Shown piece by piece: positions 13,365 through 63,216 of a stretch of DNA of 64,000 nucleotides. The DNA comes from Mobula hypostoma (taxonomy: Eukaryota). The notes beneath the pieces are model-generated. The model was not told the origin of the DNA, did no database searches, and worked only from the letters and a program-made list of their open reading frames with translations. The position numbers were made by a program, and so were the translations under genes. Every line of letters begins with the position of its first letter. Within the stretch, counting starts at the first letter, position 1. The stretch covers positions 91,390,001 through 91,454,000 of the forward strand of contig NC_086097.1 in NCBI RefSeq assembly GCF_963921235.1, written 5' to 3'.

Positions 13365-14828
13365 CAGCATGAGGAATTCTGCAGATGCTGGAAATTTAAG
13401 CAACATACATCAAAGTTGCTGGTGAACGCAGCAGGCCAGGCAGCATCTCTAGGAAGAGGTACAGTCCACATTTCAGGCCGAGACCCTTCGTCAGGACTAA
13501 CTGAAGGAAGAGTTAGTAAGAGATTTGAAAGTGGGACGGAGAGGGGTAGATCCAAAATGATAGGAGAAGACAGGATGGGGAGGGATGGAGCCAAGAGCCG
13601 GACAGGTGATTGGCAAAAGGGATATGAGAGGATCATGGGACAGGAGGCCCAGGGAGAACGAAAGGGGGGGGGAACCCAGAGGATGGGCAAGGGGTATAGT
13701 CAGAGGGACAGAGGGAGAAAAAGGAGAGAGAGAGAAAGAATGTGTGTATATAAATAAATAACGGATGGGGTACGAGGGGGAAGTGGGGCATTAGCGGAAG
13801 TTAGAGAAGTCAATGTTCGTGCCATCAGGTTGGAGGCTACCCAGATGGAATATAAGGTGTTGTTCCTCCAACTTGAGTGTGGCTTCATCTTTACAGTAGA
13901 GGAGGCCGTGGATAGACATATCAGAATGGGAATGGGATGTGGAATTAAAATGTGTGGCCACTGGGAGATCCTGTTTTCTCTGGCGGACAGAGCGTAGGTG
14001 TTCAGCAAAACGATCTCCCTGTCTGCGTCGGGTCTCGCCAATATATAGAAGGCCACATCGGGAGCACCGGATGCAGTATATCACCCCTGCCGACTCACAG
14101 GTGAAGTGTCACCTCACCTGGAAGGACTGTCTGGGGCCCTGAATGGTGGTGCGGGAGGAAGTGTAAGGGCATGTGTAGCACTTGTTCTGCTTACAAAGAT
14201 AAGTGCCAGGAGGGAGATCAGTGGGGAGGGATGGGGGGGACGAATGGACAAGGGAGTCGTGTAGGGAGCGATCCCTGTGGAAAGCAGAGAGAGCGGGGGA
14301 GGGAAAGATGTGCTTAGTGGTGGGATCCCGTTGGAGGTGGCGGAAGTTACGGAGAATAATATGTTGGACCCGGAGGCTGGTGGGGTGGTAGGTGAGGACC
14401 AGGGGATCTCTATTCCTAGTGGTGTGACGGGAGGATGGAGTGAGAGCAGATGTGCGTGAAATGGGGGAGATGCATTTGAGAGCAGAGTTGATGGTGGAGG
14501 AAGAGAAGCCCCTTTCTTTAAAAAAGGAGGACATCTCCCTCGTCCTAGAATGAAAAGCTTCATCCTGAGAGCAAATGTGACGGAGACGGAGGAATTGCGA
14601 GAAGGGGATGGCATTTTTGCAAGAGACAGGGTGAGAAGAGGAATAGTCCAGATAGCTGTGAGAATCAGTAGGCTTATAGTAGACATCAGTAGATAAGCTG
14701 TCTCCAGAGATAGAGACAGAAAGATCTAGAAAGGGGAGGGAGGTGTCAGAAATGGACCAGGTAAACTTGAGGGCAGGGTGAAAGTTAGAGGCAAAGTTAA
14801 AGTCAACCAGGTAAACTTGAGGGCAGGC
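13365..14828 (-). mobile_element. Penelope-like element, same family as 3417-5058, 5'-truncated
   Basis: ORFs 14109-14534 and 13791-14084 (IYCIRCSRCGLLYIGET); pseudo-LTR with a mutated hammerhead at 13463-13498. Confidence 0.95.
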
Positions 14829-24000: not shown

Positions 24001-25739
24001 CGAAACCAAATTTCCCTCGGGATTAATAAAGTATATATATCTATCTACCTATCTATTTACTCTGAGATAAGCGAAAAAGGGAGATCTTTGATTGTAGTAA
24101 AAAACGAAGCTGCAGGGGTATGATATATTACTTTAACCCAAGATATAAATATCGGACTAATATTAAATTTCTCAAGCACAATAAATAAATATGGCCGTTC
24201 AACTCTGTCAAAAGCTTTCTCGGCATCTAAAAAATTATTGGGTTACTTTTTAATAATGAAGTTACTATGGTCAATGTTTATTCTCCAAACGTGGATCATC
24301 CCAAATTTTTTAAGCATCTATTCACTTTTTTCCTAATTTAAATGAGTATATGTTGATAATGGGTGGTGATTTTAATTGTTGTTTAAATCCCCTGATGGAT
24401 AGATCCATATCTAGTCAGGCTTTACCGAATAAGTCAGCTACTCTTATCAACTCTTTTATGATTGACTCTGGAATTTCAGAAATTTGGAGATTTTTACACC
24501 CTAAAGATGAAGAGTTTTTATTCTTCTTACATGTTTATCATTCTTATTCCCGAATTGACTACTTTTTTATTGACTCTCATTTAATTCCATCTGTAATTGA
24601 CTGTAATTATGACATTATCGCCATTTCTGATCATGCTCCAATGAAACTTTTATCAAGTTAATGAATACTTCTCCTAGTATTAGACAATGGCGGTTTAATT
24701 CTAATCTGCTTCAAGACCCAGATTTTGTTAAGTTTATGAGGAACAGATTGATCTTTTCTTTTCAACTAATATTACAGAAGAAATCTCCAATGGGACAGTA
24801 TGGGACACTTTTAGAGCATATATCCATGGACAGATTATTTCTTATTCTGTTGGTTTGAAAAAACATATTAAGAATGAAACACTTTTGTTGGTTAATAAAA
24901 TTAAAGAAATTGATAAGAAATATTCTATTGCTCCTAGTAAGGAGCTATATAAACAGAGAGTCGAACTTCAAATGGAACATAGCTTATTATTAACATTCTC
25001 GATTGAAAATCAATTAATGAAAACTAGAAGTGACTTTTATATACATAGTGACAAATCGGGTAAATTATTAGCTAATCAATTGAAAACTGCTTCGGTTAAA
25101 CGTCAAATTATCAAGATTTGCAAACATGATGACACCTTGACAGGTAATCATGAAGAGATAAACAGATCTTTTCAAGAATTTTATACCTCCTTATACCATT
25201 CTGAATTTCCTCATGATCCCAACACCATGCATGACTTTATAAGGAAATTGAATATTCCAAAATTATCACCCGAAGAATGTTTAATATTAGAAACTTCCTA
25301 TTATGGATGAAGAAATAACAGCTGTTATTTCCTCAGTGAATTCTGGCAAAGCACTTGGTCCAGATGGTTTTACAGTGGAATTCTTTAAGTTTCTTTTCTT
25401 CTATTCTTTCTCCTTGGTTGTCTAGAGTTTTTAAAGAAGCAATCAGATTAGATAAATTACCACAATAATTTTATGGAGCTTCTATTTCTTTAATTCTTAA
25501 AAAGAATAAAGATCCTACTGATTGTGCATCATACAGACCGATATCTCTCCTGAATGTAGATTCTAAGATTTTTTTCTAAAGTATTAGCAATTAGGTTAGA
25601 GAAGGTATTACCTCAAATTATCTCTGTGGACCAAACTGGATTTATTAAAAATCGTCATTCATCTTTTAATATTAGGAGGTTAATGAATATTGTTTATACT
25701 CCTTCACTTAGTACTCCAGAAAGTGTTATTTCTTTAGAT
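21012..25739 (-). mobile_element. L1-clade LINE with 5' inversion (twin-priming structure)
   Basis: Minus strand 24231->21012: LDAEKAFDRVE, TRQGCPFSPLLF, LYAND, C-terminus and A-rich tail. Plus strand 24232-25739: NVYSPN, GGDFN, YSRIDYF, SDH endonuclease motifs through RT to SLDA. TSD GCCAAGAGCAG at 21001-21011 and 25740-25750. Confidence 0.9.
23206..24058 (+). mobile_element. Internally deleted Rex1/Babar element nested in the L1
   Basis: 3' end ggagggtcagacaccctgagccaata matches the element at 2430-3095; AATAAA plus (TATC)n-like tail; the L1 frame LSQS|TRQG rejoins across it. Confidence 0.8.
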
Positions 25740-27180
25740 GCCAAGAGCAGCATCCATCCTGCTTTTAGAAGACTATTGAATAGTTATCTAGTATGATAAA
25801 ATGGAGTGACATCACAATCTACAGTACCTTGTTATGATTTTACACCTTAATTTTCTGTCAGAAACCTCAAAGCAGGTGGTCATGGTTGAACTGACAATAC
25901 TTTGGAAACACAAGCAAGAGAAAATCTGCAGATGCTGGAAATCCAAAGCAACACACACAAAATGCAGGTGTCATAGTCTGGTCCGTGAAGTCTGCATTCC
26001 GGTTCACAGTGCGGTCCATTGTTCCTTGTTCTGGGTTTTCCTGTTTTCTCCCTTGTTCTATTGGTTGCCTTAATTGAGGCACCTGATTCTCATTTTGGAC
26101 TGGCACATAAATACCTCTGCAAACCAGAGATGGCTGAGGACTGTTCCCTTTCCCTTCCTTCTGAAGCCTTGCCTGCATTCCCGTCAAGTTGAACCACTGG
26201 AGTGAGACTGGAGCTTTGCCATGCCAAGATAAGGAACTACCTACTGTTGAGTTTGTATCCCTGTGTTTAATGTCTGTGTCAAAGAAGAGTCCTGGCCCTA
26301 GGTCCTGTTCCCAAGGAGGGGTCCTGGCTCTGTGTTCCATGTTCCTGTGTTCAAGTCCGAGGCTCTGTGTTCCTGTGCTCCAAGACCAAGTCCAGGGGCT
26401 GTGTTCCAGCCCTGTCCAAGTCTGAGCTTTGTGTCCTCATCCATTTCTGGTGCCTCGCCCAGCCCAGTGCTGGAGATTCATCGTCCTGTGCTGGAGATTC
26501 CTCATCCTGTGCTGGATCGTCCCCATCTGAATCCTCAGCAGTTTACCTCAGCAAGTATCCTCCGCAGTCATCCCGGCCCTGCGTCCTAGAAAGGGGCCCG
26601 GCCCTGCGTTCCAAGGAGGAGACCCAGCCTTGTACTCAAAAGCCCAGCTAAGCTGAGTCCAAGAGCTGAGCCAAAACTAGTCCAAGAGCCTCGTCCTGCC
26701 CTGGAGTTCCCTCCTCCTGCCATGGAGTTCCCTCATCCTGTCCAGGAGTCTGTTGTCTAGTCCAAGACACATCCAAGAACCTTGTCCAGTCCAAGCCATG
26801 CCCAAGATCCTCGTCCAGTCCAAGTCACGGTTTTGTGTTCTCGTCCTGTCCATGTGCCTCATCCTGTGCAGGAGTTTCACATCCAGTCCTGTAGCCACGT
26901 CTTGTCCTCGCCTAGATCCAGGGTCCAAGCCTGGCCCTGTCCAGTCTCTGGCTCAGAGTCCAGCCCAGGCTCCTAGTTCCAAGTTCCTTGTCCTGGTCCC
27001 GCTTTCCTAGTCTTAGTCCTGGTCCAGGTCCAGTGTCCTTGTCTTGTCCAGGGCCTGTGTCCATGTGCAACGTCGTTTCTTCCTGACTCCCCTTGTTTTC
27101 TTGATAAACCTTGTCCTGTTCCTAGTACTTCAGTGTCTGTGTCTTGTATTTGGGTCCGCTCCCAACACCCTCTTGTAACA

Positions 27181-27193
27181 GAACAGTCCAGCC
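27181..27193 (+). promoter_or_regulatory. Putative self-priming primer-binding site
   Basis: GAACAGTCC directly after LTR1 is the reverse complement of GGACTGTTC (26138-26146), about 30 nt downstream of TATA-like CATAAATA (26106-26113). Confidence 0.7.
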
Positions 27194-27949
27194 TTACATG
27201 GACCCAGCGATGCAGACACTGTTGTTTAACCCTCGCCATCCTGGGTTCCATCCTGTTGAATACACCCCCCCCCCACCCTCCCATGTAGCCCATAGTCTTG
27301 GAAAGCCTTTTGGGTCACCAGGAGGCTCCCATGGGGGTGGGGGGGAGTGTACTGTCATGGTCCTGTCTGTGAAGTCCACATTCTGGTTCACAGCCCGGTC
27401 CATCAACCCTTGTTCTGGGTTTTCCTATTTGCTCCCTTGTTCTGTTGGTTGCCTTGATTGAGGCACCTGATTCTCATTTCAGTCTGGTACATAAATACCT
27501 CTGCAAAACAAGGATGGCTGGGGACTGTTCCCTTTCCCTTCCTTCTGAAGCCTCACCTGCATCCCCATCAAGTTCAACTGCCAGAGTGAGACCAGAGCCT
27601 TGCCACGCCAAGATAAGGAAATATTTATCGTTTGGTTTGCAACTGTCTCTTTGTGTCCCTGTGTTTAGTGTTCATGTCAAAGAAGAGTCCTGGCCCTAGG
27701 TCCTGCTTCCCAAGGAGGGTTCCTGGCTCTGTTCCATGTTCCTGTGTTCAAGTTCAAGGCTCTGTGTTCCTGTGCTCCAAGACCAAGTCCAGGGGCCGTG
27801 TTCCAGCCCTGTCCAAGTCTGAGCTTCGTGTCCTCATCCAGTTCTGGTGCCTCGCCCAGCCCAGGAGTACCTCGCACAGCCCGGTGCTGGAGATTCCTCG
27901 TCCTGTGCTTGATCGTCCCCATCCGAATCCTCGGCAAGTATCCTCGGCA

Positions 27950-28140
27950 GTCATCCCGGCCGTGCGTCCTAGGAAGCATCCTGGCCCTGCGTCCTAGAAA
28001 GGGTCCCAGCCCTGTGAGAGGATCCCGGCCCTGCATCCTAGAAAGGATCCCAGCCCTGTGAAAGGCTCCCGGCCCTGCATCCTAGAAAGGCTCCCGGCCC
28101 TACGTCCTAGTAAGGGTCCCGGCCCTGCACTCCAAGGATT
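27950..28140 (+). repeat. 25/19-bp minisatellite in LTR2
   Basis: Units like tcccggccctgcgtcctagaaagg, about 8 copies versus about 2 in LTR1. Confidence 0.85.
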
Positions 28141-28252
28141 CCTGGCCTTGTACCCAAGAGCCTAACTAAGCTGAGTCCAAGAGCTGAGCCAAAACTAGTC
28201 CAAGAGCCTCGTCCTGCCCTGGAGTTCCCTCATCCTGTCCAGGAGTCTCTTG

Positions 28253-28466
28253 TCTAGTCCAAGCCACGTCCAAGAACCTCGCCCAGTCCAAGCCACATCC
28301 TAGAACCTCACCCAGTCCAAGCCACGTCCTAGAACCTTGCCCAGTCCAAGCCACGTCCCAGAACCTCGCCCAGTCCAAACCACGTCCTAGAACCTCGCCC
28401 AGTCCAAGCCACATCCTAGAACCTCGCCTAGTCCAAGCCACGTCCAAGAACCTCATCCTGTCCAAG
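28253..28466 (+). repeat. 29-bp minisatellite in LTR2
   Basis: Unit cccagtccaagccacgtcctagaacctcg, about 7 copies versus 2-3 in LTR1. Confidence 0.9.
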
Positions 28467-28828
28467 TCAAGGCTTTGTGTTCTCATCCTGTGCAGGAGTT
28501 CTACATCCAGTCCTGTAGCCACGTCTTGCCCTAACGCCTGGATCCGGGGTCCAAGCCCGAGTCAAGACCCAGCTTCCGGATCCCTGTCCAGTCTCTGGCT
28601 CGGAGTCCTAGCCCAGGCTCCTAGTTCCAAGTTCCTTGTCCTGGTCCCGCTTTCCTAGTCTTAGTCCTGGTCCAGGCCCAGTGTCCTTGTCTTGTCCAGG
28701 GCCTGTGTCGATGTCCAATGTCGCTTCTTCCTGACTCCCCTTGCTTTCTTGATAAACCTTGTCCTGTTCCTAATACTTCAGTGTCTGTGTCTTGCATTTG
28801 GGTCCGCTCCCAACGCCCTCTTGTAACA

Positions 28829-29045
28829 GCAGGAGGAACTCAGCTGGCCAGGCAGCATCTGGGGAAAAGAGTAAACAGTCAACATTTTGGGCCAAGACCC
28901 TTCATCAGGACTGGAAAAAGAGAGGAGAAGTCAGAGTTCTCCTCTTTCTTTCTAATCCTGATGAAGGGTCTTGGCTCAAAACATCAATTGTTACACTTTT
29001 CCATAGATGCTATCTGGCCTGTTGAGTTCCTCTAGTATTTTGTGC
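28829..29045. mobile_element. Fold-back pair of PLE pseudo-LTR ends; left portion at 25912-25968, split by the LTR element
   Basis: Minus-strand (28877-28912) and plus-strand (28954-28989) decayed hammerhead motifs within inverted arms. Confidence 0.8.
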
Positions 29046-31298: not shown

Positions 31299-32805
31299 AA
31301 AAGAAATAGAATACATTATAAATCATACAGTATAATAGTGGTCAACAGCAATGAATTGACAATAAATGTATATGCAGGAGTGTACGGTCACCAAATTCAT
31401 AGTCACCACCACTGCTTGTGCAGGCAGAAAGTATAACACACATGGAACGTGCTCAGTAAAATTCTTAGAAAGAAGTTGACGATTGTCAAACATGATAGGA
31501 TCGAACCCACCTCACTAGAGCTGTGAGGTGGCAGTTCTGTCAGCTGCAACAGTGTGTGAAGCCTGGGAGACTCCTGGAGTGAGAGCTGAGCAAAAACAGC
31601 ATATCCACTAAACAGATACCCCCCACCCCCACCCAGAAACTGCCCTTACAGCTTTGACATCTGACATGGTTCTGCCATTGGCATTGCTGAATGTCAGAGC
31701 TGTAAGCCCTCTAAATGAGTCTGATATTTAGAAATGCACAAAATATTATAAAATAGAAATAAATGAATTTAAAAGAAAATCAGATCACTTAGAAGCATAT
31801 GAATAATTGAACCAAATCACATCCTTGTAATTCTTGATGAAATTAAGGGGGATTACAGATCCTGGATTGTATTTAACCTGGAACAGAATACAAAGGCAGA
31901 TTCACCAGCATCAGCGCTGGGGAATCACAGCAAGGCAGAGCTACTCTGCAGGAGTCTAACAGCACAGGTGGAATATTTTCAGTGAGGTTTGTAGACAGAA
32001 GTTGATGCCTATTGTTTCTGTTGTTTGATATATAGATGACAGGGTTTTGCCAGCTGTCAGTTTCCGGGGCAGTTTCAGTTTGAACCAACTACAATACACC
32101 ATGAGAGGCCCTGTCCCTGTTCAAGTCTTGTCAAGGAGGCTTTGGGCAATGAGGGAAGTCCTTAGGTTGGTAAGAGCATAAGGTGACCACTGCCAAAGTA
32201 AGTCTGACTGTGCAGAAATAGAATTTTTAAGTAGCAAGACAAAAGTGGGCAATGGGTGATGTGGTTAAGTTGCTACCCCACAGCCTCAGTGACTTGGGTT
32301 CAACCCTAATCCCCATTGCTGTCCATGTGGTCAACTTTGCCTCCTTTCCCATCTATGCCCAATAATTTCAATTAACCCACTCCAAACATTATTTTTTTTT
32401 CAGCTTGCCCTCTCCCCACTTCCCCATCAGGCAAAAGATACAAAAACTTGAAAACACACATTACCAGGTTGAAGGACAGCTACAATCCGGCTGTTATAAG
32501 ACTGTTGAACTGACATCTTATAAGCTAAAGATGGACTCTACCTCACAATCTACCTCGCCATGGCCCTTGTGTTTCATTGTTTACCTGCACACCATCCTCT
32601 CTGTAATTATGTTCTACATTCTGATATTGCTGTCCCCTTGTACCACCTCGAAGTACTCATGATCTGTATGAATGGCTTGTAAAACTGCGTTTTCCCACTG
32701 TTTCTCAGTATGTGACAACAATAAACTGAGATAAAAGGATGAAGATGGGAATAAAATTTCACAGATAAGGCATCTTTAACAAATCAATAATATTGGAAAT
32801 CTGAA

Positions 32806-35075
32806 GTATAGAATATAGAATAGTACAGCACAGTACAGGCCCTTCGGCCCACAATGTTGTGCCAACCCTCAAACCCTGCCTCCCATATAAGCCCCCACCT
32901 CCATTTCCTGTCTAGTAGTCTCTTAAACTTCACTAGTGTATCTGCCTCCACCACTGACTCAGGCAGTGCATTCCACACACCAACCACTCTCTGAGTAAAA
33001 AACCTTCCTCTAACATCCCCCTTGAACTTCCCACCCCTTATCTTAAAGTCATGTCCTCTTGTATTGAGCAGTGGTGCCCTGGGGAAGAGGCGCTGGCTAT
33101 CCACTCTATCTATTCCTCTTATTATCTTGTACACTTCTATCATGTCTCCTCTTATCCTCCTTCTCTCCAAAGAGTAAAGCCCTAGCTCCCTTAATCTCTG
33201 ATCATAATGCATACTCTCTAAACCAGGCAGCATTCTGTTAAGTCTCCTCTGTACCCTTTCCAATGCTTCCACATCCTTCCTATAGTGAGGCAACCAGAAC
33301 TGGACACAGTACTCCAAGTGTGGCCTAACCAGAGTTTTATACAGCTGCGTCATTACATCGCGACTCTTAAACTCTATCCTTCGACTTATGAAAGCTAACA
33401 CCCCATAAGCTTTCTTAAGTACCCTATCCACCTTTGAGGCAACTTTCAGGGATCTGTGGACATGTACCCCCAGATCCCTCTGCTCCTCCACACTACCAAG
33501 TATCCTGCCATTTACTTTGTACTCTGCCTTGGAGTTTGTCCTTCCAAAGTGTCCCACCTCACACTTCTCCGGGTTGAACTCCATCTGCCACTTCTCAGCC
33601 CACTTCTGCATCCTATCAATGTCTCTCTGCAACCTTTGACAATCCTCTACACTATCTATAACACCACCAACCTTTGTGTTGTCTGCAAACTTGCCAACCC
33701 ACCCTTCTACCCCCACATCCAGGTCGTTAATAAAAATCACGAAAAGTAGAGGTCCCAGAACAGATCCTTGTGGGACACCACTAGTCACACTCCTCCAATC
33801 TGAATGTATTCCCTCCACCATGACCCTCTGCCTTCTGCAGGCAAGCTAATTCTGAATCTACCTAGTCAAACTTCCCTGGATCCCATGCCTTCTGACTTTC
33901 TGAATAAGCCTACCACGTGGAACCTTGTCAAATGCCTTACTAAAATCCATATAGATCACATCCACTGCACTACTCTCATCTATATGCCTGATCACCTCCT
34001 CAAAGAACTCTATCAGACTTGTTAGACACGATCTGCCCTTCACAAAGCCATGCTGACTGTCCCTGATCAGACCATGATTTTCTAAATGCCCAGAGATCCT
34101 ATCTCTAAGAATCTTTTCCAATAGCTTTCCCACCACAGACATAAGGCTCTCTGGTCTATAATTACCCGGACTATCCCTACTACCTTTTTTGAACAAGGGG
34201 ACAACATTCGTCTCCCTCCAATCCTCCGGTACCATTCATGTGGACAACGAGGACATAAAGATCCTAGTCAGAAGCTCAGCAATCTCTTCCCTCGCCTCAT
34301 GGAGCAGCCTGGGGAGTATTCCGTCAGGCCCCAGGGACTTATCTGTCCTAATGTATTTTAACAACTCCAACACCTCCTCTCCCTTAATAGCAACATGCTC
34401 CAGAACATCAACCTCACTCATATTGTCCTCATCATCATCAAGTTCCCTCTCATTGGTGAATACCGAAGAGAAGTATTCATTGAGGACCTCGCTCACTTCC
34501 ACAGCCTCCATGCACATCTTCCCACCTTTATCTCTAATCGGTCCTACCTTCACTCCTGTCATCCTTTTTTTCTTCACATAATTGAAGAATGCCTTGGGGT
34601 TTTCCTTTACCTTACTCGCCAAGGCCTTCTCATGCCCCCTTCTTGCTCTTCTCAGCCCCTTCTTAAGCTCCTTTCTTGCTTCCCTATATTCCTCAATAGA
34701 CTCATCTGATCCTTGCTTCCTAAACCTCATGTATGCTGTCTTCTTCCACCTGACTAGATTTTCCACCTCACTTGTCACCCATGGTTCCTTCACCCTACCA
34801 TTCTTTATCTTCCTCACCGGGACAAATTTATCCCTAACATCCTGCAAGGGATCTCTAAACATCGACCACATGTCCATAGTACATTCCCCTACAAAAACAT
34901 CATCCCAATTCACACCCGCAAGTTCTAGCCTTGTAGCCTCATAATTTGCCCTTCCCCGATTAAAAGTTTTTCCTGTCCTCTCTGATTCTATAGTTTTCCA
35001 TGATAATGCTAAAGGCTAGGGAGCGGTGGTCACTGTCCCCCAGATGCTCACCCACTGTGAGATCTGTGACCCTGA
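32806..35075 (-). mobile_element. CR1 (HER1-like) LINE, 5'-truncated, relatively young
   Basis: ORFs 34236-34913, 33858-34235 and 32784-33821 with YMDFSKAFDKV, SGVPQGSVLGP, KFADN, HLEYCVQFW; ctattctat tail. Confidence 0.95.
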
Positions 35076-44451: not shown

Positions 44452-45770
44452 ATCCTGGACCCTCAGAGGCTCCACCTTCCTCTCACACCAACCCTCCCCT
44501 CTCCACTAACACCACCAGCCTCCCTCCCCCCTCTGATCCTAGCTCTCAAGACTCCAGCCTTGAACTCCAGGCCGGGTCTTCACCTGTGACTCTCGTCTCC
44601 CCTTCCTCCACCACCACTCTGCAACCCCGTCTCCCTCAGATCCCACCGTCAGTTCTTGGGCCCTCGGAGGCTTCATCTTCCTCTCACCCCAACCCTCCCC
44701 TGTCCACTGACACTACCAGCTTCCCTTCCTCTCCCCCCTCTGATCCCAGCTCTCATCCGTGCCGGGTCTTTAATATCCCCTCCGACCTTCAACTCTCTGA
44801 GGCAGAGCGCTCTGTCCTCAGTAAAGGCCTTACCTTTTTCCCCCTTCGCCCACACCTCAGCGGGTTCCGCGGGCGCCAAGACACTGAACCCTTCTTCCGC
44901 TGGCTCCGTCTTCGAGCCCACTTCTTCAGCAAGGACTCTCCCACCCCCACTGACGACCCCGTCTCCTGTCTTCAACCCTTCTCCTCTTCATGGACACCCC
45001 GCTCTGGCCTTCTGCCTGCTCTGGATCTCTTTATTGCTAACTGCCGACGGGACATCAACCGTCTCGACTTCATCGCACCTTGTTCCAATTCCAACCTCAC
45101 TCCTTCTGAATGCTCTGCTCTCCACTCCCTCTGCACTAATCCTAACCTTACTATAAAACCTGCCGATAAGGGGGGGGGGGTGCTGTTGTAGTCTGGTGTA
45201 CTGACCTCTACCTTGTCAAGGCACAGCGACAACTTGCTGATACCTCCTCTTATTTACCCCTCGATTATGACCCCACTAAGGAGCACCAGGCCATTGTCTC
45301 CCACACCATCACCGACTTTATCAGCTCTGGGGATCTCCCATCCACTGCCACCAACCTCATAGTTCCCACACCCTGCACTTCCCGTTTCTACCTCCTACCC
45401 AAGATCCACAAACTTGCCTGTCCTGGTAGACCCATTGTCTCAGCTTGCTCCTGCCCCACCGAACTCGTTTCTGCATACCTCGACACTGTTTTATCCCCCC
45501 TTGTTCAATCCCTTCCCACCTGTGTTCGTGACACTTCTCACGCACTGAATTTCCCCTTTTGCCAATCAACTTTCCAGCTCTTAGCTCCATCCCTCCCCCT
45601 CCTGTCTTCTCCTATCATTTCAGATCTTCCCTTCCCCCTCCCACTTTCAAATTTCTTAATATCTCTTCTTTCAGTTAGTCCTGATGAAGGGTCTCGGCCC
45701 GAAACATCGACTGTACCTCTTCCTAGAGATGCTGCCTGGCCTGCTGCGTTCACCAGTATTTTGTGTGTGT
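44452..45770 (+). mobile_element. Penelope-like element, internally deleted (N-terminal/RT start fused to the pseudo-LTR)
   Basis: LSEAERSVLSKGLTF, TIKPADKGG, FYLLPKIHK, GRPIVS; jumps at about 45553 to the pseudo-LTR; hammerhead motif at 45677-45712. Confidence 0.9.
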
Positions 45771-46744
45771 TGCGAGTTGGATAGTCACTTGACATGACCC
45801 CTTTGTACAGGTTTTCCCTGAGGCTCCAGTTGTCAGAAACTTTAACTCTCCAACTCAATCCCATTCCTATATTAGTCATAGCACTGTTCCAATAAAGCTC
45901 ATCTTTGGCTCGAGAAACATCACTGCACCTTCCAACGCAGGTGAGTCACAATTTGCAGATCACAGCACCAAAGTCAACAATTTCAGAAAGCCAGCCTTTC
46001 CAGTTTATACCGGAACTGCCACAATAACAGGTCGCCAATGGAAATGTTGCATCCCTTTCTCCACACAGCTGCTGTCTGAGTTGTTGGGAACTTCCAATAA
46101 TTTTTGTTCGTATTTCAGATTTCCCGCACCTGCTTGCATTTCTCTGCATCATCAGCCTGTAGCTGAGTTTTAGCAATTTCCCTGCCTCTTACTTTAAATT
46201 GTTTCCCACTTGCATCATCTCCAGGTAGCTCAGCAGTGATAAACATTCAACACCTGCACCACCTGCCATTTTGGTGCTCAGTCTCCACCCTATTACAAAC
46301 ATTACTTTATTAGATATTTTATTTATTTTTTGATCTCTTTTTTTTTAAGAGTCATAGGATGAAAACAGATCTTTTGGCCCCCCAAGTCTGTGCTTGGGCC
46401 ATCAAGTACCTACTAACAGTAATCTTATATCAATCCCATTCCATTCTCCCTACATTCCCACCAGTCTCTCAGACACTACTCCTCACACCAGAGAGGCAAC
46501 TTCTTCACACAGTGGATGATGCAACTCTAAGTTTTTCATTGCACCTCTGCAGACATGTATAGTACTTGTGCGTATGACAGTAAACTCAGTTCTGACTCTC
46601 ACTTTGCGGCTGGTACAATCTTGACATTTAAAAGACACGTGGAAAAGTATACAGCGAGGAAGGCTTAGAGGGATACTAGCTCAATAGGACTTCCTCGGCC
46701 TGGAAGGTTTGGGCAAAATGACCTGTATTCTTCCCGTATTGCTG

Positions 46745-47299: not shown

Positions 47300-48545
47300 G
47301 GCACAACACACACAAAAATGCTAGGTGAACTCAGGAGGTCAGGCAGCATTGATGGAGAGAAATAGACAATCGACATTTTGGGCCAAGACCCTTCATCAGG
47401 ACGAGAAGGAAAGAGCTCAGAAGCCATAATAAATGGTGGGGGGAGAGGGGAGGAGTACGACTGGCAGGTGATAGGTGAATCCAGAGGTGGGGGGAAGAGA
47501 GATGGGTGGGTGAGAAGGGTGGCGGGAACAATGTGAGAAGCTGTGAGTTAATAGGTGGAAGAAGCAGAGGGCTGAAGAAGATAAGAGAGGGCAGTAGACC
47601 ATAGAATAAAGGGAAGAAAGTGCAGAACCAGAGGCAGGTAGGTGTGGGTGTTGGGCAGGTCACGAGGATGGGCAAGAGGAAAGAGAAGGGGGAAGGGACC
47701 AGAGAGAAAAGACACAACAAAGGAGGGAGGGGAGTGGTTACTGGAGATTAGAGAAATTGGTAGTGATGTTGTCAGGTTAGAAACTATCAAACTGGAATAG
47801 GGGATGTTGTTCTTCTAATCTGCACCTAGCCTCAATTTGGCAGTAGAGAAGTCTGTGGACAGACGTGTCAGTGTGGAAATGGGAAGTGGAATTAAAATGG
47901 CTGACATTTGGAAGATTCTGGATGTTACCATAGATGATGTAAAAGTGCTTGATGAAGTGATCGCTCAGTGTGTGTTGAGTCTCACCGAATGTAGAGGAGG
48001 CTCCACCAGGAAACACAGAGGCAATTAATGACACCAGTTGATTCACATGTGAAGTGCTACCTTACATGGAGGGCTGATGAGGGACCTGAATGGTGGTGAG
48101 AGAATGGTGGTGGTAAGGGCAGGTGTAACACTTGGGACAAGTGCCAGAAGGAGAGCTTATGGAGAGGGATAAGTGGACAAGGAAATCATGGAGAAAATGA
48201 TCCCTGCATAAACTGGAGAGGGGAGGGAGGAGGAGCTTTGTCTGCTGGAGAAAGCGCAAGTTGTGGAGGATGAAATAGATACAGAGGCTAGTGAGATAGC
48301 AGGTGAGAATGAGGAGAAGCATAACTCTATAATATCAGAGGGGAGAGGTATGTGCTGGAAATGGAAGAGACGTACAGGTAGGTGAGGGTAGCTTTGATAG
48401 CACTGGAAGGGGAACCTCATTTTCTGGGAGAAGAAGGTATTATGGATGTCCTGCAGTGAAAGGTCTCAACATGGACACAGATGTCACATAGATGGAGGAA
48501 CTGAGAGAAGGGAAGAGCACTCTTGAGAGTGACAGGGCTTTAGGC
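47300..48545 (-). mobile_element. Older Penelope-like element
   Basis: GETQHTLSDHF...HFNS...RLEEQH; pseudo-LTR with a decayed hammerhead at about 47367-47402. Confidence 0.8.
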
Positions 48546-48868: not shown

Positions 48869-49344
48869 TGTAAACGGCTCCAATAAAGCAGAAGTACACC
48901 AACTCCAATTAATTACTTAGGATTACAAAACTGTGTTTATTAGACAGAATAGGTCAAGCTTTGAAACACTTATTTAAATAATGTGCAGACCCCTCTCACA
49001 GCAGGAAACCTCCCATTTGATCCGCATCACTGTTCACAATAGCCCATCGGTGAGGCCCTGTGAAACCACCACCAAGCTCCCCGACCACTCTACTTCCAGA
49101 CTCTTTCCACTGATTTGAAATACTGCAGTGAGTGGGCCAGTACATAGCACCATCTCAAACCACCGAAGCCGAACCAATCATCACTCTTCGCGAGTTGCTC
49201 CTCTGTGTTCAACTAACTTTCACGTTCCCATGGTGGTATTGCATTCTCATGGTTGTATTACTGTAATAGTAATTAAAGTTCTGTTACATTCCAGACCATG
49301 GTGGTGATGAGACATTTGATAAGCACAAAAATTAACCCTTTACA
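48869..49344 (-). mobile_element. Endogenous retrovirus 3' LTR (476 bp)
   Basis: Minus strand TGTAAAGGG...CCGTTTACA terminal inverted repeat; PPT GAGGGGTAGAA (49345-49355); TATA-like motif 48971-48980; AATAAA 48936-48941. Confidence 0.75.
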
Positions 49345-49371
49345 TTCTACCCCTCAAATGTCACCACCCTG

Positions 49372-49670
49372 TTATACCCGGCCCATAGGCTTTAATACAA
49401 CACCTGCAGATGCCCCTCCAATTAAAAGCAAATTGAAAAAGTACTAAGCATAAATCAAAATGGCTATGGTAATACTCCAGCGCACTACAGTAGCCCATCA
49501 CCCTCCTGGCACTCCAAAGGGCCACCAACTCCCTATATAATAGTAATGGAACCGATATCCCACCTTCTGTATTTTATCTACCAAACGTTGGAGATGGTCA
49601 AATTTGTAATATTCTTTGACTCATCACGGATGTACTTACAACACACCTGGTAGATTATGGTGCTGAATTC
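49372..49670 (-). pseudogene. env: Retroviral env TM subunit remnant
   Basis: S-TIIYQV-CC-KYIRDESKNITNL (CX6CC with the first codon AGC one base from TGC), a frameshift, then DHLQRLVDKIQKVG...SWWPFG and a hydrophobic membrane anchor; lies directly upstream of the PPT and LTR. Confidence 0.7.
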
Positions 49671-49679
49671 CCACCTCTG

Positions 49680-49830
49680 GAGTATGTTGTGTCATATGTG
49701 TCTCGAATAGATGATCTGGCCGATCACCCGACACACAAGTCAAAATATCAGAGAAAGGGTATCACAGAGACCAGTCAGTTCTGGATGATAGCTTATCCCC
49801 CATATGGTACTACCCAGGTCATCCTGATGG
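49680..49830 (+). pseudogene. env: Inverted env SU/TM junction remnant
   Basis: YVVSYVSRIDDLADHP...KYQRK|GITETSQFWMIAYPPYG resembles an SU C-terminus, a decayed basic cleavage site and a fusion-peptide region. Confidence 0.5.
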
Positions 49831-49959
49831 CCTCAACCATTGGAATTTATCTTGACAAAGGACCTCTGGCTTCCCACTTTGAGAACATCCTGCAGCCACT
49901 CTGATACATGAGCACCCGAGAGACAATACACTATCCTTGTGTCACTTTTGTGGCCGCAG

Positions 49960-52900
49960 AATCTCCTTTACTGAAATTTGGTTGAAAGAGGGGCAAGAAT
50001 GGATGATTAACGCACCACGTTTTCTCAGTTTTAGAAAAGATAGAGGAGGAGGAGGAGGTAAAAGAGGGGCGGAGGGAAGAGAAGTTGCACTACTAATTAG
50101 GGACAATATCACTGATGCAATCAGAGGAGATATATGGAGGGGTCAGACACTGAGTCCATTTGGGTGGAACTCAGGAAAAGGAAGGGTGCATTCACATTGG
50201 TACTACAGGCCCCCTAATAGTCACCAGGATATTAAGGAATGGATATGTAATCAGACTAATTGAAATGAGTGAAAATAATAGGGGGATTATCAACTTCCCT
50301 AATGTTATCATGGAGGATTTCAACTTCCCTAATATAAACTGAGACCTTCTTAGTGTAAGGGGTTTAGAAGGGGCAGGATTTGTTAAGTGTCTCCAGGAAG
50401 TTCTTTTTAAATCAATATGTGGACAGTCCAATGAAAGGAGGGGCCATACTGGACCTGGTGTTGGGTAATGAGCCTGGCTAGGGTGACTGACCTTTCAGTG
50501 GGTGAACAGTTAGGGAACCGTGGCCACAACTCCTTAACTTTCAGGATAGCCATAGATAAGGATAGGTATGGTCCTTGTGGGTGAGTTTTAAGTTGGAGTA
50601 GGGCAAATTATGAGGGCATTAAGCAGGAACACTGAAGTGTTAACTGAGAAATCTTTGTCTCTGGCAAGTCCACACTGGACATGTGGAGGGTGTTTCATGG
50701 TCAATTGCACAGTGTACAGGAAAAGTATGCTCCTGTCAGAAGGCAGGTCGAGGATGGAAAGATAAGAGAACCTTGGATGTCAGAGAGGTGAAGCATTTGG
50801 TCAAGAATAAAAAGGAAAAGTATGTAAAGCTTTGGAAGTCAGGATCAAATGAAGCGCATGATGAGTAGAAAGAAGCTAGAAAAGAACTAAAAAAGGGAAT
50901 TAGAAAAGTGAGGAAGGGCATGAAAGTCCTTGGCAAGTATGATGAAGGCAAATCCCAAGGCATTCTCTACATACATTAGGAGCAAGAGGAAAATTAGGGA
51001 AGAGGGTAGGACCATTCAATGATAAAGGGGGATACATTTGCTTGGATGCAGAGAATGTGAGTGAGGTACTAAATGAGTACTTTGCTTCAGTGTTTACCAA
51101 GAAAAAGGATATGGTGGACCAGGAGATCAGTGCTGAGCATATAAATACATTAGGGTGTTTAGCAGCCAAAGAGGAGGAAGTGCTGGACTTCCTAAAGAGC
51201 ATTAAGGTGGATCAGTGCCCAGGTCCTGATGGGATTTAACCCATTACTGAATGAGGCAGGAGTCGAGATTGCTGGGGCTTTTACCAGAATCTTCATGTTC
51301 TCAAACCTATGTAATACAAACATCTATGTCAGGAAGCTGTTCATTGACTATAGCTCGGTGTTTAACACCATCATCCCCACAGTCCTGATCAGTAAGCTAC
51401 AGAACCTTGGCTTCTGTACCTCCCTCTGCAATTGGATCCTCAGTTTCCTAACTGGAAGACCACAATCTGTGTGGAATGGTGATATCTCCTCCTTGCTGAC
51501 AATCAACACTGGCACACCTCAAGGGTGTGCGTTTAGCCCACTGCTCTACTCTCCCTATACCCATGACTGTGTGGCTAGGTATAGCACAAATTCCATCTAT
51601 TAATTTGCTGATGATACAACCATTGTTGTTTGAATCTTGGATGAAGATGAGAGGGCATACAGGAGGAAGATATACCAGTTAGTGGAGTGGTGTCGCAGCA
51701 ACAAACTTGCCCTCAACATCAGTAAGACGAAAGAGCTGATTGTGGTATTCAAGAAGGGTAAGACCAGGTAATATGAGTCAATCCTCACTGAAGGATCAGA
51801 AGTGGGGAGAGTGAGCGATTTCAAGTTCCTGGGTGTCAAGGTCTCTGATGATCTAACCTGGTCCCAATATATGGATACAGCTATAAAGAAGGCAAGACAA
51901 TAGCTATATTTCATGAGGAGTTTGAATAGATTTGGATTGTCACCTAAAACTCTCAAAAACTTCTATAGAAGTACCATGGAGAGCATTCTGACTGGCTGCA
52001 TCACTGTCTGGTACGGGGCTGGGGGCGGGGGTCACTACTGCACAGGACTGAAAGAAGCTACAGAAAGTTGTAAAATTAGTCAGCTCCACCTTGGGTACTA
52101 GCTTCCATAGTATCCAAGACATTTTCAAGGAGCGATGCTTCAGAAAGGCGGCTTCCATCATTAAGGACCCCTATTGCCCAGGAATACCCTCTTCTCATTG
52201 TTACCATCTGGAAGGAGATACTGAAGCCTGAAGGGACACAGCAATTCAGGAACAGCATCTTCCCCTCTGCCATCCGATTCCTAGATGGATATTGAACCCA
52301 TGAGCACTACCTCACTTTTTTTAATATATATTATTTCTGTTCTGCTCCATTTTTAATCTAACTATTTAATATATATATAACTGTAATTGATTTACTTCGG
52401 TTTTTTCTTTCTATATTATCATTTATTGTATTGTACTACTGCAGCTAAGTTAACAAATTTCACAACACAAGCCAATGATAAAAAACCTGATCCTGATTCC
52501 TCTAACCACAGGCAAGGTCCCAGATGACTAGCAGGTGGCCAATGTTTTACCTCTATTTGAGAAAGGAGCAAGGGAAAATCCTGAGAACTGAAGACTGGTG
52601 AGTCTCATGTCAGTTGTAGGGTAATTGCTGGAGAAAATTCTTAGGGATAGGATATATGAGCATTTAGAAACTGATGGCCAAATTAAAGAGAGCCAGCATG
52701 GCTTTGGAATGGGCAGGTCGTATCTTACCAACTTGATTATTTGACATGGCGACGAGAGAGATTGATGAGAGTAGGACAGTGGATGTTGTCTACATGGATT
52801 TTAGTAAGGTGTTCAACAAAGTCCCTCATGCGAGGTTAATCCAGAAGATTAAAATGCATGGGGTCTGCAGCAAATTGGTTGTCTGGATTCATAGAAGACA

Positions 52901-53765
52901 GAGGGTAGTGGTTAAAGGGACTTACTCAAACTGCAGGTCAGTAATTAGTGAAGTTCTGCAGAGAACTGTGCTGGGACCTCTGCTGTTTGTAATGTATATA
53001 AATGACCTGGATGAAAATGTAGATGGGGGGGTTAGTAAGTATGCAGATGATACCAAGAATGGTGGAGCTGTGGACAGCGTAGAAGACTGACAAAGAATAC
53101 AGCGTGATATAGATCAGTTGCGGATTTGGGCAGAGGAAAGGTAGATTTAACTCAGATAAGTATGAGGTTTTGCACCATGATAAGGCAAATGCAAGGAGAC
53201 AGTACACTGTTAAGGGCAAGATCTTTAAGAGTGTTGCTGCACAGAGCAATCTTGGGATCCAGGTTCATAGCTCCTTGAAAGTGGTTGATAAGGCGGTTAA
53301 GAAGTTATTAGTTAAGGCATTGAGTTCAAAAGTCAAGAGGTTATGTTGCAACTTTATAAAACTCTGGTTAGGCCACTTCTGGCATATTGCATGCAGTTCT
53401 AGTTGCCCCACTATAGAAAGGATGTTGAGGCTTTGGAGATGGTGTAGAAGAGGTTTACCAGGATGCTGACTGGTTTATATGGCCTGTGCTATCATGAGAG
53501 GCTGGATAAACTTGAGCAAAGTGAGGAGTAAGTTTTCGCTCAGAGAATTGTGGATGCCTGGAATGCACTGCCTGTTATAGTGCTAGAAGCAAATACATTA
53601 GATTCTTTTAAGAGACATTTGGATAGGGACATGGATGTAAGAAAGATGGAGGGATATGGATATTTGGTAGGTAGGGAGATGTTCTTGAATTGATTTTTAG
53701 CTGATTTAGCACAACATTGTGGGCTGAATGGCCTGTTTCTGTGCTGTACTGTTCTATGTTCTATG
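49960..53765 (+). mobile_element. CR1 ORF2 (APE + RT), decayed, interrupted by Rex1
   Basis: TEIWL, YYRPP, MEDFN, LNEYFASVFT, YMDFSK, KYADDTK; tgttctatgttctatg tail. Confidence 0.9.
51302..52500 (+). mobile_element. Rex1 LINE, 5'-truncated, nested in CR1
   Basis: [37 protein letters not shown]; cctgatcctgattc tail. Confidence 0.9.
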
Positions 53766-54802
53766 GTCTACATAGCAGCCGGATCAGCCCATACATATCT
53801 TATCTACTGACCATTGGACATGGTCAGTCAAATCTGCTCTCTGACTCTTCAGGGATGTACCTACAACACATCTTGGTTGGGAGGTAAGTTGCTACTACTT
53901 TTTATCAGGGCTTCTGTGCGTTCCCAACAAATGGATTTAAGATTGTCCATATCATCTTAAATGCTCTTTCTCCCTTGAGTGGTCACCAGTACAAAAGCCT
54001 GATCAGCCACCTCAGAACCTACCAAAGTTCTGAGTGGAAGCAAGTCATCTTTGACTACAAGGGATGACTATGGATGAAAAGGACACAAGAGAGGACACTC
54101 ACTTTAAATAGTCCCCCAAGAGAAAAAATTGAAACTTTTGCATAGCATCCCGACAGAAAGTTGGCAGTTCTGACAGTGCAACTTCTTTTATCATTTGCTG
54201 TGTTAACTCCATTCGAGTGGAGTACTTGAGTCCCATAAATTAGGCTCAACTCACAACACATTTTGTTTGTTAACTTGGGTCTAAAAACCACCTGGAAGTT
54301 GGCAGCACAGGATGATGCAAATCAGGAACTAATTATTGGAGCATACCTGTAGGTTTCAGAGACTTAAGGGAGGGAGCCCTGAAAAAAGGTGTCAATTAAT
54401 GGCATTGAAGTACAACTGAAGCATGTTAAATTATTTATGTGTGTGTCTAAAAGCTACTCATGCTAATCCTATTTCTCAATTCTAACCTGTAGCCTTGCAT
54501 GTTGAGCACATCAAGCTATTTAAGTGATCACGGCCTCTCCCAATGTTATGCACCTTGATTACTCTTTCACAACACACTGGAGGAACTCAGCAGGTCGGGC
54601 AGCATCCATGGAATTGATTACTCTTTCCCCTTGCCACTCACTATTGGCATTGCTAATCTTTCTTTCAAAACAGACTTTTCAAACTCCTCTGTATGTCTTT
54701 GAGAACATCAGATGCTATCCTGCATTCAGCTCTTCAAGCCTACTCAGCTATTCAGATGTGATGGTTGACCACATATCTTGACACAGTTTTACTTTATAAA
54801 TG

Positions 54803-59264: not shown

Positions 59265-60145
59265 GGTTATAGAGTCATCCAGCCTTTATCAGGATGGAAA
59301 GGAAGGGGGAAGAAGTCAGAATAAGAAGGGTGGGGGAGGGGAGGAAGATGTACCCGGTGGCAGGTGATGGGTGAAACTAGGAGAGGGGGAGTGAAGTAAA
59401 GAGCTGGGAAGTTGATTAATGAAGGAGATAAAGGGTTAGAGAAGTGGGAATCTGTTAGGAGAGGACAGAAGGCCATGGAAGAAAAGGAAGGGGGAGGAGG
59501 GAGATGATGGACAGTTAAGAAGAGAAGGTGTGCGAGGGAAACATAAATGGGGAAAGAGAGGAGAGCAATTACTGGAAGTTTGAGAAATCAATGTTCATGA
59601 CACCAGATTGGAGGCTAGCCAGGCGGAATATAAGGTGTTGTTCCTCCAATCTGACTGTGGCCTCATTGTGGCTGTAGAGGAGGTCATGGACTGACATGTC
59701 TGAATGGGAATGGGAAGTGGAATTAAAATGGGTAGCCATCGGGAAATCCCACATTCCTGGTGGACAGAGTGAAGGTGCTCAGAGAAGTGCTCCCCCAGTT
59801 TATGCACTGTCTTACCAATATACAGGAGGCGATACTGGGAGCACTGGATACAGTAGATGATCCCAACAGTCTCGCAGGTGAGGTGTTGCCTTATCTGGAA
59901 GGACTATTTGGGGTCCCAAATGGTAGTGAGGGAGGAGGTGTAGGGGCAGGTGTAGCACTCGTTTCACTTGCAAGGATGAGTGACAGGAGGGAGATCAGTG
60001 GGGAGGGATGAGGAACAAGGGAGTCAAGTGGGGAGTAATCCTTGTGGGAAGCAGAAAGTGTTGGGGGAGGGGGAAGATATGCTTGGTGGTGGGACCACAA
60101 TGGAGATGGCGGAAGTTATGAAGAATTATGTGCTGGGCGCAAAGG
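59265..60145 (-). mobile_element. Older Penelope-like element 3' part
   Basis: ATHFNSTSHSHSDMS...RLEEQHLIFRL...MNIDFSNF followed by a pseudo-LTR. Confidence 0.85.
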
Positions 60146-60199
60146 CTTGTGTTGAGGGAGATGGGGGTTGGGGGGGGGGGGAGAGAGAGAGAGAGATGT

Positions 60200-61968
60200 G
60201 GCAAACAGTCCAAACCCATCATGTTATATCCTGAGAAAGTAGCTAGAGTGACAGGAAACCCCAAATTATTCCCCCGAATGTCCAATGCAAGGCTCTCCTG
60301 ATGGTTGTTCTGGAGGATCATGAAGAAAAGTTATGCTTACCACCTGGAGTGCTGGTGAGACACGAACTGCAAAAACTTTTGGCTGTCCACACAAACAGGA
60401 TGACTGTGATGGTTAGGAATACCTCAGAGAGAGATGTGGGGTGCCGATGTCACATCTTTTCCCTGTGACAGTAATATCTAGTTTACCAGTGAGAAAACCG
60501 GAAGAGAGTCAGTTTCCTGGATCAGAAAAGTTAACTGCAAAGTCATTCAACTTTGGAGGCTCCCCGGTACCTGAGGAATGGAAAAGGAGACTAACTGAAA
60601 AGATGTTGAAACTCAAAGATGTCTTTTCTACTGGCGAGTTCCATGTTGGATGCTCCAACAGTACTCACCACTCTGTTAGAGTGACGGAGGACACCCTAGT
60701 CTGAGGGAGATCTCGCTTGTTGGCACCAGTGGAAGTTGAATATGTTCAACAGCACCAGTTTAAACTGCGCTCCAATGTAATTGGGGATGAAGCTGAGTTC
60801 AGTCAGGCGGCAAGGTGTCCTGAGTCACTGGGAGGTACGAGAGATAGACAGGGAGAGGTAGCTCCAAATAAACAGGAACAGTCACAAGGAGCGCCTGAGT
60901 CTGAAGAAGCTGAAGATGAGATAAGAACGTCTCAGAGAGTCAGGAAACCCCCAGATCGACTGGCATATGATGCACTGGGGAAACAGAACATTGAATCCAT
61001 CCCATAGTGAGTTATGTTACTTCTATTTGCAAATGGATTGGGGCTCCTGAAATCAAAATTAATTTAAATGCTTTGTTATTAATCATAGTTTAATAAATTC
61101 CATAGTTATGAGGACATGACTATTTTTGATGGGGAGGGGGGAGAATGTGATGCCTTGGTTAAGCTTTCTACTGCTGTGCTTTGAGGTATTTTAGTTTTGC
61201 ATTTTTCTGTAAAAGCAGTGTGTCCCGCTGGTAAGAGTGTTTTCGCTTCATCTAAAGATAAGGAACCATGTTGTCCAACTTAGGAAGGTTGAGTCACCCA
61301 ATCAGGATGTAGAGAAGGTTCCTAGAAAGCTGGGTAGGAAGAGATTTCTGAAGGACAGCAGACTGGTTTGGGGTCCTGTTGGCAGAGCTGCAGAGCGGAG
61401 CGCAAGGGAAGATGCCGCAGAATGCTGGTGGAAGGAGAGTCCCCGTTGCAAGAAGTGCTTTGTACAGATGAGTGGCTCCAAGGAAGAAGAGCCAATACTT
61501 CTGAGACAGCCAGTTCATTCGAGATGGTCTTTGAGGGAAATTTAGACTGGTGCTGGTGCTTTCACACAGACTGTGGGATCAGTACATGAGTAAAGCAATA
61601 CACCCCTGACTACTCCAGAAATGAGCTCCAATGTTTATGTGCACATTGGACTGGCTAACTGGTTTTATTTTTCTTTGCCTTTTTTCTGTAACTGTAAATT
61701 TGTTAAATAAATATTCTTTATAATTTTATGCACGTCATTTCTGGGCTACTGATAGCTGTGTATGGGCAGTGGTTACACAGTATTCACTAAGATCAAATTC
61801 CTTAATCGGAACATCCCAACATTGCTGTTTGGTTGAACCCCAAGTCATACTGATCCTAGACGTATATTACTCATGAAAGGTGGCCTTCTCATCGCTGAGT
61901 CATGTGGCTTTTGGCAGGGTCAGCTAACAAGCCAAGTTGGTGTACGAGCCCTGGTGAGCGGGTTGCAT
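60200..61968 (+). mobile_element. Gypsy LTR retrotransposon remnant (deleted pol plus 3' LTR)
   Basis: FNFGGSPVPEEWKRRL...DVFS.GEF.VG; RTSQRVRKPPDRLAY (integrase tail); PPT 61131-61145 then TGTGATG at 61146; right end uncertain. Confidence 0.75.
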
Positions 61969-62030
61969 ATAAATTGGAAGAACAGCATACCATCTTCTGT
62001 CTGGGCCTGCTATTATTTCAGGATGCAGTA

Positions 62031-63216
62031 CAGGTTGACCTTCCCTTATCCAAAATGCTTGGGGGCGGAAGTGTTTTGAATTTCAGAGTTTTTTTTTGGA
62101 TTTTGAATGTTTTTTATCTATATAACGAGAAAGGTCGAGGATGGAACCCTAACCTAAACATGAAATCCATTTACATTAGATAATCAGCTTATACAAATAC
62201 CCTGAAGATAGTTTTATAAAATATTTTTAATAATTTTGTGCACACAACAATAATTTTGTATCACTACACCGGCTGCCCAGCTGGACAGTCAGTGGCTATT
62301 TAGCATCACCATCATTCCCCACTCTGAATCCATATGCAACCAATAAGCAGTCTTTGATTTACACTTCCTCATCACACATATGTACTGATACAGCATTCTG
62401 TGTGTTAGATTTTCATCAGCGACAGTCTTGGCAAACTCATCAATGAATTTTTCTGCTGCTTTGTGATCAGCAGACGCCTTATCACCACGAACCTTTAAAA
62501 GTTTAATGTCGTGCTTTTTCTTAAATTTCTGTAACCAGCCTACTGAATATTCACAATTGCCTTCAATTTTCAGTTTGTTTGATAGATCTTTGCTTCTTTC
62601 ATGATCACATACAATTCACTCTGTCACTGACGAATCCATTCTTACAATATACAATCGAAATCTTCATTTTTCACTTTATGCAGTGTTTTTCCATTTTTCA
62701 TTAACTTCCGTTCATTACTGTCAGTATAGAACTTTAACAGTGCGTCCTTCTATCCCTTTGGGTCATAGATGGTGGTTGTTCCAAGACCATACTCTGTCAG
62801 GTGCTTCACACTTACACTGCTGTCAAGTTTTTCTAACAATTTGACTTTCTGTGTTATAGATAAACATAAATGCTTCCCCTTTTTCTTTGTACTATTATCC
62901 ATAGTGGGTAACTTCAGACCTTTTTGACATTTTCAACAATCTCTTCACAGCACAGAGCAGAGAATAAGCACAAAAAATATGGTAGCCACTGATTAATGCA
63001 CAAAGGTCTGTCTATAATGACAGCTGAAAACAAATTAGCATCAACAGAGCACCACACAGGGTATATGAGGTCACTTCTCAGAATCATCTGTTGTGTGCAG
63101 AGACCTGCATGTTGACTGGGAACCCTCCCAGCATACTAGGGAATTTCCCATTTGTGTTGTCAAGTCAACACAAAAAAAATCAGATTTTAGATTTTTGAAT
63201 ATGGGGTGCCTAACGC
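62031..63216 (-). mobile_element. Tigger/pogo DNA transposon, internally deleted
   Basis: TA + CAGGTTGA TIR; minus strand 62930->62395 KHLCLSITQKVKLLEKLDS...GTTTIYD...YSVGWLQKFKKKHDIK (CENP-B-type HTH domains); frameshifted. Confidence 0.85.

Follow-up and report, generated by a model that had tools for sequence, protein, structure and literature searches.

The locus discussed here raises the question of whether DNA without a visible env open reading frame (ORF) is nevertheless the 3' end of an endogenous retrovirus (ERV). An earlier note had proposed this for positions 48869–49670 of the window, i.e. of the whole 64,000-nucleotide stretch of Mobula hypostoma DNA analysed here, and had taken the env gene to be of the gamma type. 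Our analysis leads to a similar answer: the stretch is very probably the dead proviral 3' end of a retrovirus with gamma-type Env that had inserted itself into the germ line of one of the host's ancestors.

Anatomy of the remnant

What can be recognised of env lies on the minus strand and corresponds to the TM part of the protein. A chain-reversal segment (49605–49664) reads S-X6-CC, with the CC pair at 49643, followed by an NIT sequon at 49613. In a different frame, that of the anchor, the C-terminal part of TM (49372–49602) comprises an HR2-like helix (with the helix-like DHLQRLVDKI at 49599), a Trp-rich stretch (WW at 49527), a membrane anchor (a hydrophobic 19-mer from 49473, KD 2.09) and a short tail. 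The sequon, helical segment, Trp-rich region and hydrophobic anchor named in the earlier note are all present on this strand, and the HR2 helix, anchor and short cytoplasmic tail follow the loop at the spacing seen in the reference proteins described below. Because the TM pieces occupy different frames and the anchor frame contains stops at 49500, 49446 and 49374, with the anchor itself broken by a stop, no ORF is visible, which is also what the note had stated.

The literal CX6CC motif, by contrast, is absent from the place where it had been reported, since the in-frame reading has Ser at the position of the first Cys. The six residues before the CC pair align ungapped to the reference loops, with this Ser at position 18, which is consistent with decay. 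Six-frame translation of the window gives three literal CX6CC matches, all of them elsewhere, with 4.45 expected by chance. As an ordered combination, CC pair and sequon are found at six sites in the window and CC pair, sequon and anchor at this site only, the latter being met 0.38 times per simulated window, with thresholds that were chosen after the sequence had been seen. Across the three stricter levels of the motif set, 60 simulated windows yielded 23, 1 and 0 hits, the two strictest levels relying on an upstream IQN segment that we later came to doubt. A long-loop CXnCC or a 70-bp insertion in the loop was also considered and is unsupported, three references aligning ungapped over positions 20–36 or more.

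Upstream of the loop, where the ISD and HR1 would be expected, there is a decayed part (49665–49950) with an uncertain upstream boundary between 49836 and 50003: contig depth is at a low-copy level at 49774 and 49836 and at the level of a LINE at 50003. The element thus reaches beyond the coordinates first given for it, to at least 49836. As published, the ISD has 17 residues (L1 Q2 N3 R4 L7 D8 L10 G15 G16) directly before CX6CC (PMC11575397). One candidate placement is a GG pair just upstream of the loop, in another frame, aligned to positions 15–16 in the references L088 and L093; the other is the IQN segment, with a Cys at +17, which lies 143 nt before the CC pair, i.e. about 70 nt too far away, lacks L7, D8, L10, G15 and G16, and was used in the alignments of L122 and L072 only. 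Neither placement is convincing, and no ISD is recognisable with confidence. A tandem duplication comprising the IQN segment and the segment before the CC pair was rejected, with 457 of 2000 shuffles scoring as well.

About 30 bp beyond the end of the env piece, a polypurine tract (49355–49345), so designated by its position, abuts a 3' LTR (49344–48869) of 476 bp with TGTAA...TTACA ends, i.e. a terminal inverted repeat of 5 bp (TGTAA/TTACA), and a TATA-like box TATTTAAA at 48980 and AATAAA at 48941 inside it. This bears out the description of a purine tract followed by a TG...CA LTR with terminal inverted repeats. Taken alone, the LTR pattern is weak and near chance, the combination of purine tract, inverted repeat and AATAAA occurring once in the window and 0.7 times per simulated window. 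The order env, polypurine tract, 3' LTR with TG...CA ends and poly(A) signal is the layout of a provirus. This copy is truncated: a second LTR as well as gag, pol and SU were not found within the window, and Pfam detected no retroviral pol families in 49801–54560 and 10 other ORFs.

Homology to gamma-type TM proteins

Direct database searches returned no Env. In Pfam, the window was negative for TLV_coat, the family with which the earlier note had proposed to check the reading, and for any other Env family (six frames and pieces); a match to DUF3304 (E 0.014), weak and under the cut-off, was rejected. Sequence search of the PDB gave chance matches only, the piece from the window retrieving no GP2, and neither word-based protein searches nor phmmer against 1.84 billion protein cluster representatives found an Env or a host protein; the three phmmer matches were all tandem-repeat proteins and were rejected. 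The C-terminal part (49372–49602) alone had no significant match. These blanks weigh little, because the pieces are only 20–77 residues long and decayed. Relics of this kind escape Pfam and protein searches, and frameshift-aware scoring is needed for them.

In a reverse test, references were collected by the published pattern of ISD and CX6CC (as given in PMC11575397), i.e. independently of the window. An open-frame filter retained 84 of the 122 loci fetched (25 viral, 97 from metagenomes), of which 21 were left at 80% identity. With tblastn, 3 of these 21 matched 49658–49596 (E 0.008–0.055) and one unrelated site in the window reached E 0.003; in a single-frame hmmsearch the TM site ranked second (E 0.18). 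For frameshift-aware scoring, L047 was dropped as a chance match and L093 replaced its near-twin L029. A profile of all 20 references then placed the TM site at the top of the window (27.0, equalled in 3 of 12 simulated 128-kb sequences), as did a profile of the 13 non-RRGLD sequences (32.8, equalled in 1 of 12), whereas a profile of the seven MLV-, HTLV- and type-D-like sequences did not, so that two of three profiles put it first.

With single references, four of 17 (L088, L093, L096 and L122) scored 67–79 here versus at best 48–58 in 205 other window segments, and the other 13 failed to exceed every other segment at the TM site. Eight of the 17, picked after the window result was in hand (the four best, two middling, two blank), were also run on simulated segments: none of 1499 reached the score of any of the four best, for which Gumbel P values were 1e-5 to 1e-4 (at most about 2e-3 when corrected for 17 tests), and the corresponding counts were 8 for L027, 33 for L072, 1364 for L003 and 1001 for L039. 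L088 and L093, the two references tested, belong to PF00429 TLV_coat (E 3e-19 and 8e-17), and a PDB search with L093 also retrieved syncytins and filovirus GP2. Over 20 residues in the frame of the CC pair, the remnant is identical to L093 at 11, to L088 at 10 and to MLV-like references at 3 positions, and BLASTP of the chain-reversal segment gave 11/18 (pairwise E 3e-6). In the frameshift-aware scoring, 49372–49602 aligned to reference positions 39–97, and the distance from CC pair to anchor, about 50–57 codons, compares with 46–60 in the 17 references. Overall, the frameshift-aware TM matches, and the PF00429 membership of references among them, support at modest strength a homology to gamma-type Env with a PF00429-type TM, and with it the original reading of the locus as an ERV 3' end.

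The four best-matching TMs have the same CC-x-YI-x-D-x-x-x-N pattern after the loop and a similar spacing to the anchor, but they are only 26–43% identical to the window over aligned residues and show no similarity at the DNA level; they would thus be relatives of the remnant from another family. The MLV-, HTLV- and type-D-like references and a group with a PDG loop (L039, L115, L124) score at background. An extra search pattern, chosen after the resemblance had been seen, yielded an env in one of nine loci (L124, at background score). Seven of the fetched loci (L027, L072, L076, L081, L093, L096, L122) are metagenome contigs with open, divergent gamma-type env frames, several of these contigs being 5–12 kb long; they probably represent DNA of a host or a virus that was assembled along with the rest.

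Copies, age and alternative readings

Among 24 sequencing runs, 13 with four species labels contain part of the stretch, and one run per label (X1, X7, X10, X13) was compared at 80% likeness, X1 possibly being the source itself and not independent. Summed contig depth was 6–9 in unique bins (about 6 in X1), 26–62 in env bins and, in two LTR bins, 44 and 102 (X1), 63 and 163 (X7) and 83 and 175 (X13), a measure that gives no copy number. Alternative letters were shared by 4–12 contigs at several LTR sites and by 2–6 at the env sites 49377 and 49774. The LTR and the env piece are multi-copy, and env-bearing copies exist.

The junction between LTR and flank at 48869 is bridged in the three other species labels. 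In X7, one contig spans 48300–50016 with 30 differences in 1717 positions (1.7%); X10 has one difference in 236 (0.4%) across the junction. X13, the most distant, reaches across the junction with 48 letters on the flank side and differs at 23 of 363 LTR positions (6.3%); elsewhere it differs at 18 of 323 in the flank and at 13 of 234 in the env piece (5.6% each), the latter not being tied to the flank, so that its orthology is inferred. Judged by these sequence comparisons, the insertion is older than the divergence of the most distant label, and env-bearing retroviruses reached the lineage before several species split. With substitution rates assumed from sharks, i.e. from other species, of 0.5e-9 (PMC10699275) or 2.2e-10 (as given in PMC4422223), a divergence of 5.6% would correspond to some 56 or 127 million years.

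On its upstream side, the remnant borders a decayed CR1-type LINE on the plus strand (49950–53765), with a second LINE piece nested at about 51300–52500; we take the pieces to be CR1 and L2. Pfam finds RVT_1 (E 4.8e-18 and 2.2e-6) and ALKBH8_N (E 1.8e-6) in it, and it resembles the window's other LINE copy up to 53764, with a depth in the thousands and more. Where the LINE's 3' tail ends, about 4 kb from the first env piece, a second TM relic on the minus strand (53772–53877) contains a CC pair and the start of a helix. Its positions 53877–53796 are 75% identical over 81 bp to 49570–49648 (E 2.8e-8; none of 1000 shuffles reached the score), it keeps the same CC-x-YI pattern, and three of eight references score there with P 4e-3 to 2e-2. 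It is common to two other species labels, and in X13 it and its flank have 38 differences in 757 positions. Upstream of the core shared by the two fragments, homology is not significant (equally good scores arose in 406 of 500 shuffles). No similarity to 11 reference N-terminal parts was found near either fragment, so that the region expected to hold the SU CXXC, furin site, fusion peptide and HR1 appears lost, and neither viral nor metagenome contigs contained a match to a DNA pattern made from the core. Upstream of the second relic, the L122 alignment shows a Q-x-R with Cys at +16, about 40 nt beyond the canonical CC spacing, possibly by chance. Next to it, 53878–54077 is a low-copy repeat with a summed depth 3–7 times the unique level, in which a short stretch near 54000–54070 presumably represents an RTE-type LINE piece.

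If both fragments stem from retroviruses, they could come from one provirus, its env partly duplicated when the LINE inserted, or from two related insertions. Their common orientation at the two ends of the LINE speaks for a single provirus, as do differences that affect the three codon positions equally (5, 5 and 5 in 72 sites), the pattern that decay would leave in the absence of coding constraint. Among the contig joints listed, which LINE sequence dominated, neither an empty site nor an allele lacking the LINE was seen. Yet only about 85–100 bp are shared, the regions upstream of them are unrelated, SU-like sequence was not found upstream of the second fragment, and a divergence of about 21% is far above the 5–6% that separates the window from the most distant species label, and we regard the single provirus as the somewhat less probable of the two.

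A much less probable reading drops the retrovirus and derives the LTR from a Ty3/Gypsy-like retrotransposon. The sequence upstream would then be the 3' untranslated part of that element or a piece of host mRNA which it had captured, and the likeness to TM would be accidental. Gypsy/DIRS1 elements make up most batoid LTR sequence according to a mobulid genome preprint (bioRxiv 10.64898/2026.10.27.761883), a comparable PPT-GAGAA-TGT junction is present in a Gypsy-like end at about 61130–61150 of the window, and the blank database searches would fit as well. Against this, four TLV_coat-type TMs match frameshift-aware, in the right order and spacing, no host protein was matched in the word-based and phmmer searches, and the second fragment keeps the CC-x-YI pattern. 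Least probable is a co-option by the host of the env piece or LTR, as membrane peptide, promoter or poly(A) site, and hence its retention in four species labels, for although the junction is common to several labels and the TATA-like box and AATAAA are readable, the env piece has stops and frame changes, no host gene was noticed in a search of the window that was not exhaustive, and, because env piece and LTR diverge in X13 no less than the flank does, there is no sign of constraint.

We thus return to the dead provirus as the preferred reading, in which a retrovirus with gamma-type Env would have entered the germ line of an ancestor of the host. In the live virus, TM would have been a class I fusion protein, with heptad helices round a disulfide loop whose third Cys was bound to SU, a glycan after the loop and, in the intact protein, a membrane anchor followed by a short tail. 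Plus-strand synthesis would have been primed by the purine tract, and the LTR would have supplied promoter and poly(A) signal, roles that we take from established retrovirology as outlined in PMC9967133. The family may have left a modest number of copies, of which this one seems to have been stripped of all sequence upstream of TM, either by the insertion of the LINE or later, and to have decayed, presumably neutrally, by stops, frame changes and loss of the first Cys. The remnant would now be inert, making no protein, and be a marker of an old infection.

Known relatives and the surrounding window

The earlier note had taken CX6CC as the mark of a gamma-type (class I) Env and had suggested that, if the host is a chondrichthyan, the element may tag a new lineage among sparsely described ERVs. 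Class I does not follow: in fishes and amphibians, gamma-type Env is reported together with three kinds of pol, epsilon-related and gamma-related (both class I) and SnRV-related (class III) (bioRxiv 10.1101/2021.11.23.469661), and there is no pol here. As neither gag nor pol, SU or a further LTR turned up, the element can be assigned neither to class I nor to a new lineage. The suggestion of sparse description and a new lineage was overstated, since the same preprint already reports ERVs with gamma-type Env from six cartilaginous fishes, three of them with over 500 copies, and 46 orthologous insertion groups in Chiloscyllium. In this respect the remnant is ordinary. It resembles those ERVs of amphibians and fishes in having a TM with CC pair, helix and membrane region upstream of an LTR, in being multi-copy and in being inserted orthologously in related species, but it is a decayed 3' piece only, without a recognisable ISD and unplaced among Env-C.1 to C.9. 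In the elephant shark, three full-length CmiERV lineages, classified by pol as SnRV-like and epsilon-like, have been described (Han 2015, PMC4422223); they too are env-bearing ERVs of a cartilaginous fish and old, the LTR divergence given there pointing to tens of millions of years, yet full-length where ours is truncated, a comparison made by description only.

A further lead concerns filoviruses. Filovirus-related ERV ectodomains are reported from Chiloscyllium, Scyliorhinus, Amblyraja and Leucoraja, i.e. two sharks and two skates, a group placed as sister to ebola- and marburgvirus GP2 (PMC11521997, Nat Microbiol 2024); in the account given there, the calibration of the tree uses tarsier orthologues together with a root prior, and a fish-side date is lacking. 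Over the 13 residues that begin with the CC pair, the window shares 8 ungapped identities, counted by eye, with Ravn virus GP2, a pattern also found in L093 and L088 and thus not diagnostic but a lead only. It appears unlikely on present evidence that the remnant marks an ERV family of the ray lineage which bears env, is so far unclassified and has a TM inside this cartilaginous-fish group. If true, an insertion common to several related species would provide a dated fish-side calibration point for the ectodomain tree.

One dead, truncated copy is of little significance alone. Its LTR and env piece can nevertheless serve as probes in the search for more complete copies in the host group, for which no ERV env studies in devil rays were found in the literature searched. 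Retroviral LTRs are put at 0.15–0.63% of batoid genomes by the mobulid genome preprint (bioRxiv 10.64898/2026.10.27.761883).

Other elements were noticed elsewhere in the window. A Gypsy-like remnant at 60300–61970 (plus strand) contains pol-like pieces and an integrase-end-like peptide with no Pfam hit, a G-rich polypurine tract at about 61130–61146 and an LTR-like segment from about 61147. Two Penelope-type elements, at 3622–5051 (plus) and 13372–14800 (minus), with GIY-YIG at E 1.4e-4, are 93–96% alike, inverted and about 8–11 kb apart, and further decayed copies of this type lie near 44700–45800, 47330–48500 and 59550–60330. At 25969–28829, a GC-rich block contains a duplicated unit of about 1.4–1.6 kb (83–96% alike) with internal short tandem repeats. 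LINE pieces on opposite strands at 22825–25310, with RVT_1 (E 2.7e-10) at 22828–23289, are presumably L1/Tx1-like. On the minus strand, a well-preserved CR1-type LINE at 32787–35015 retains a 353-aa open C-terminal piece of RT, and 62292–62615 carries a DNA-binding piece of a Tc5/Tigger-type transposase (E 5.7e-4).
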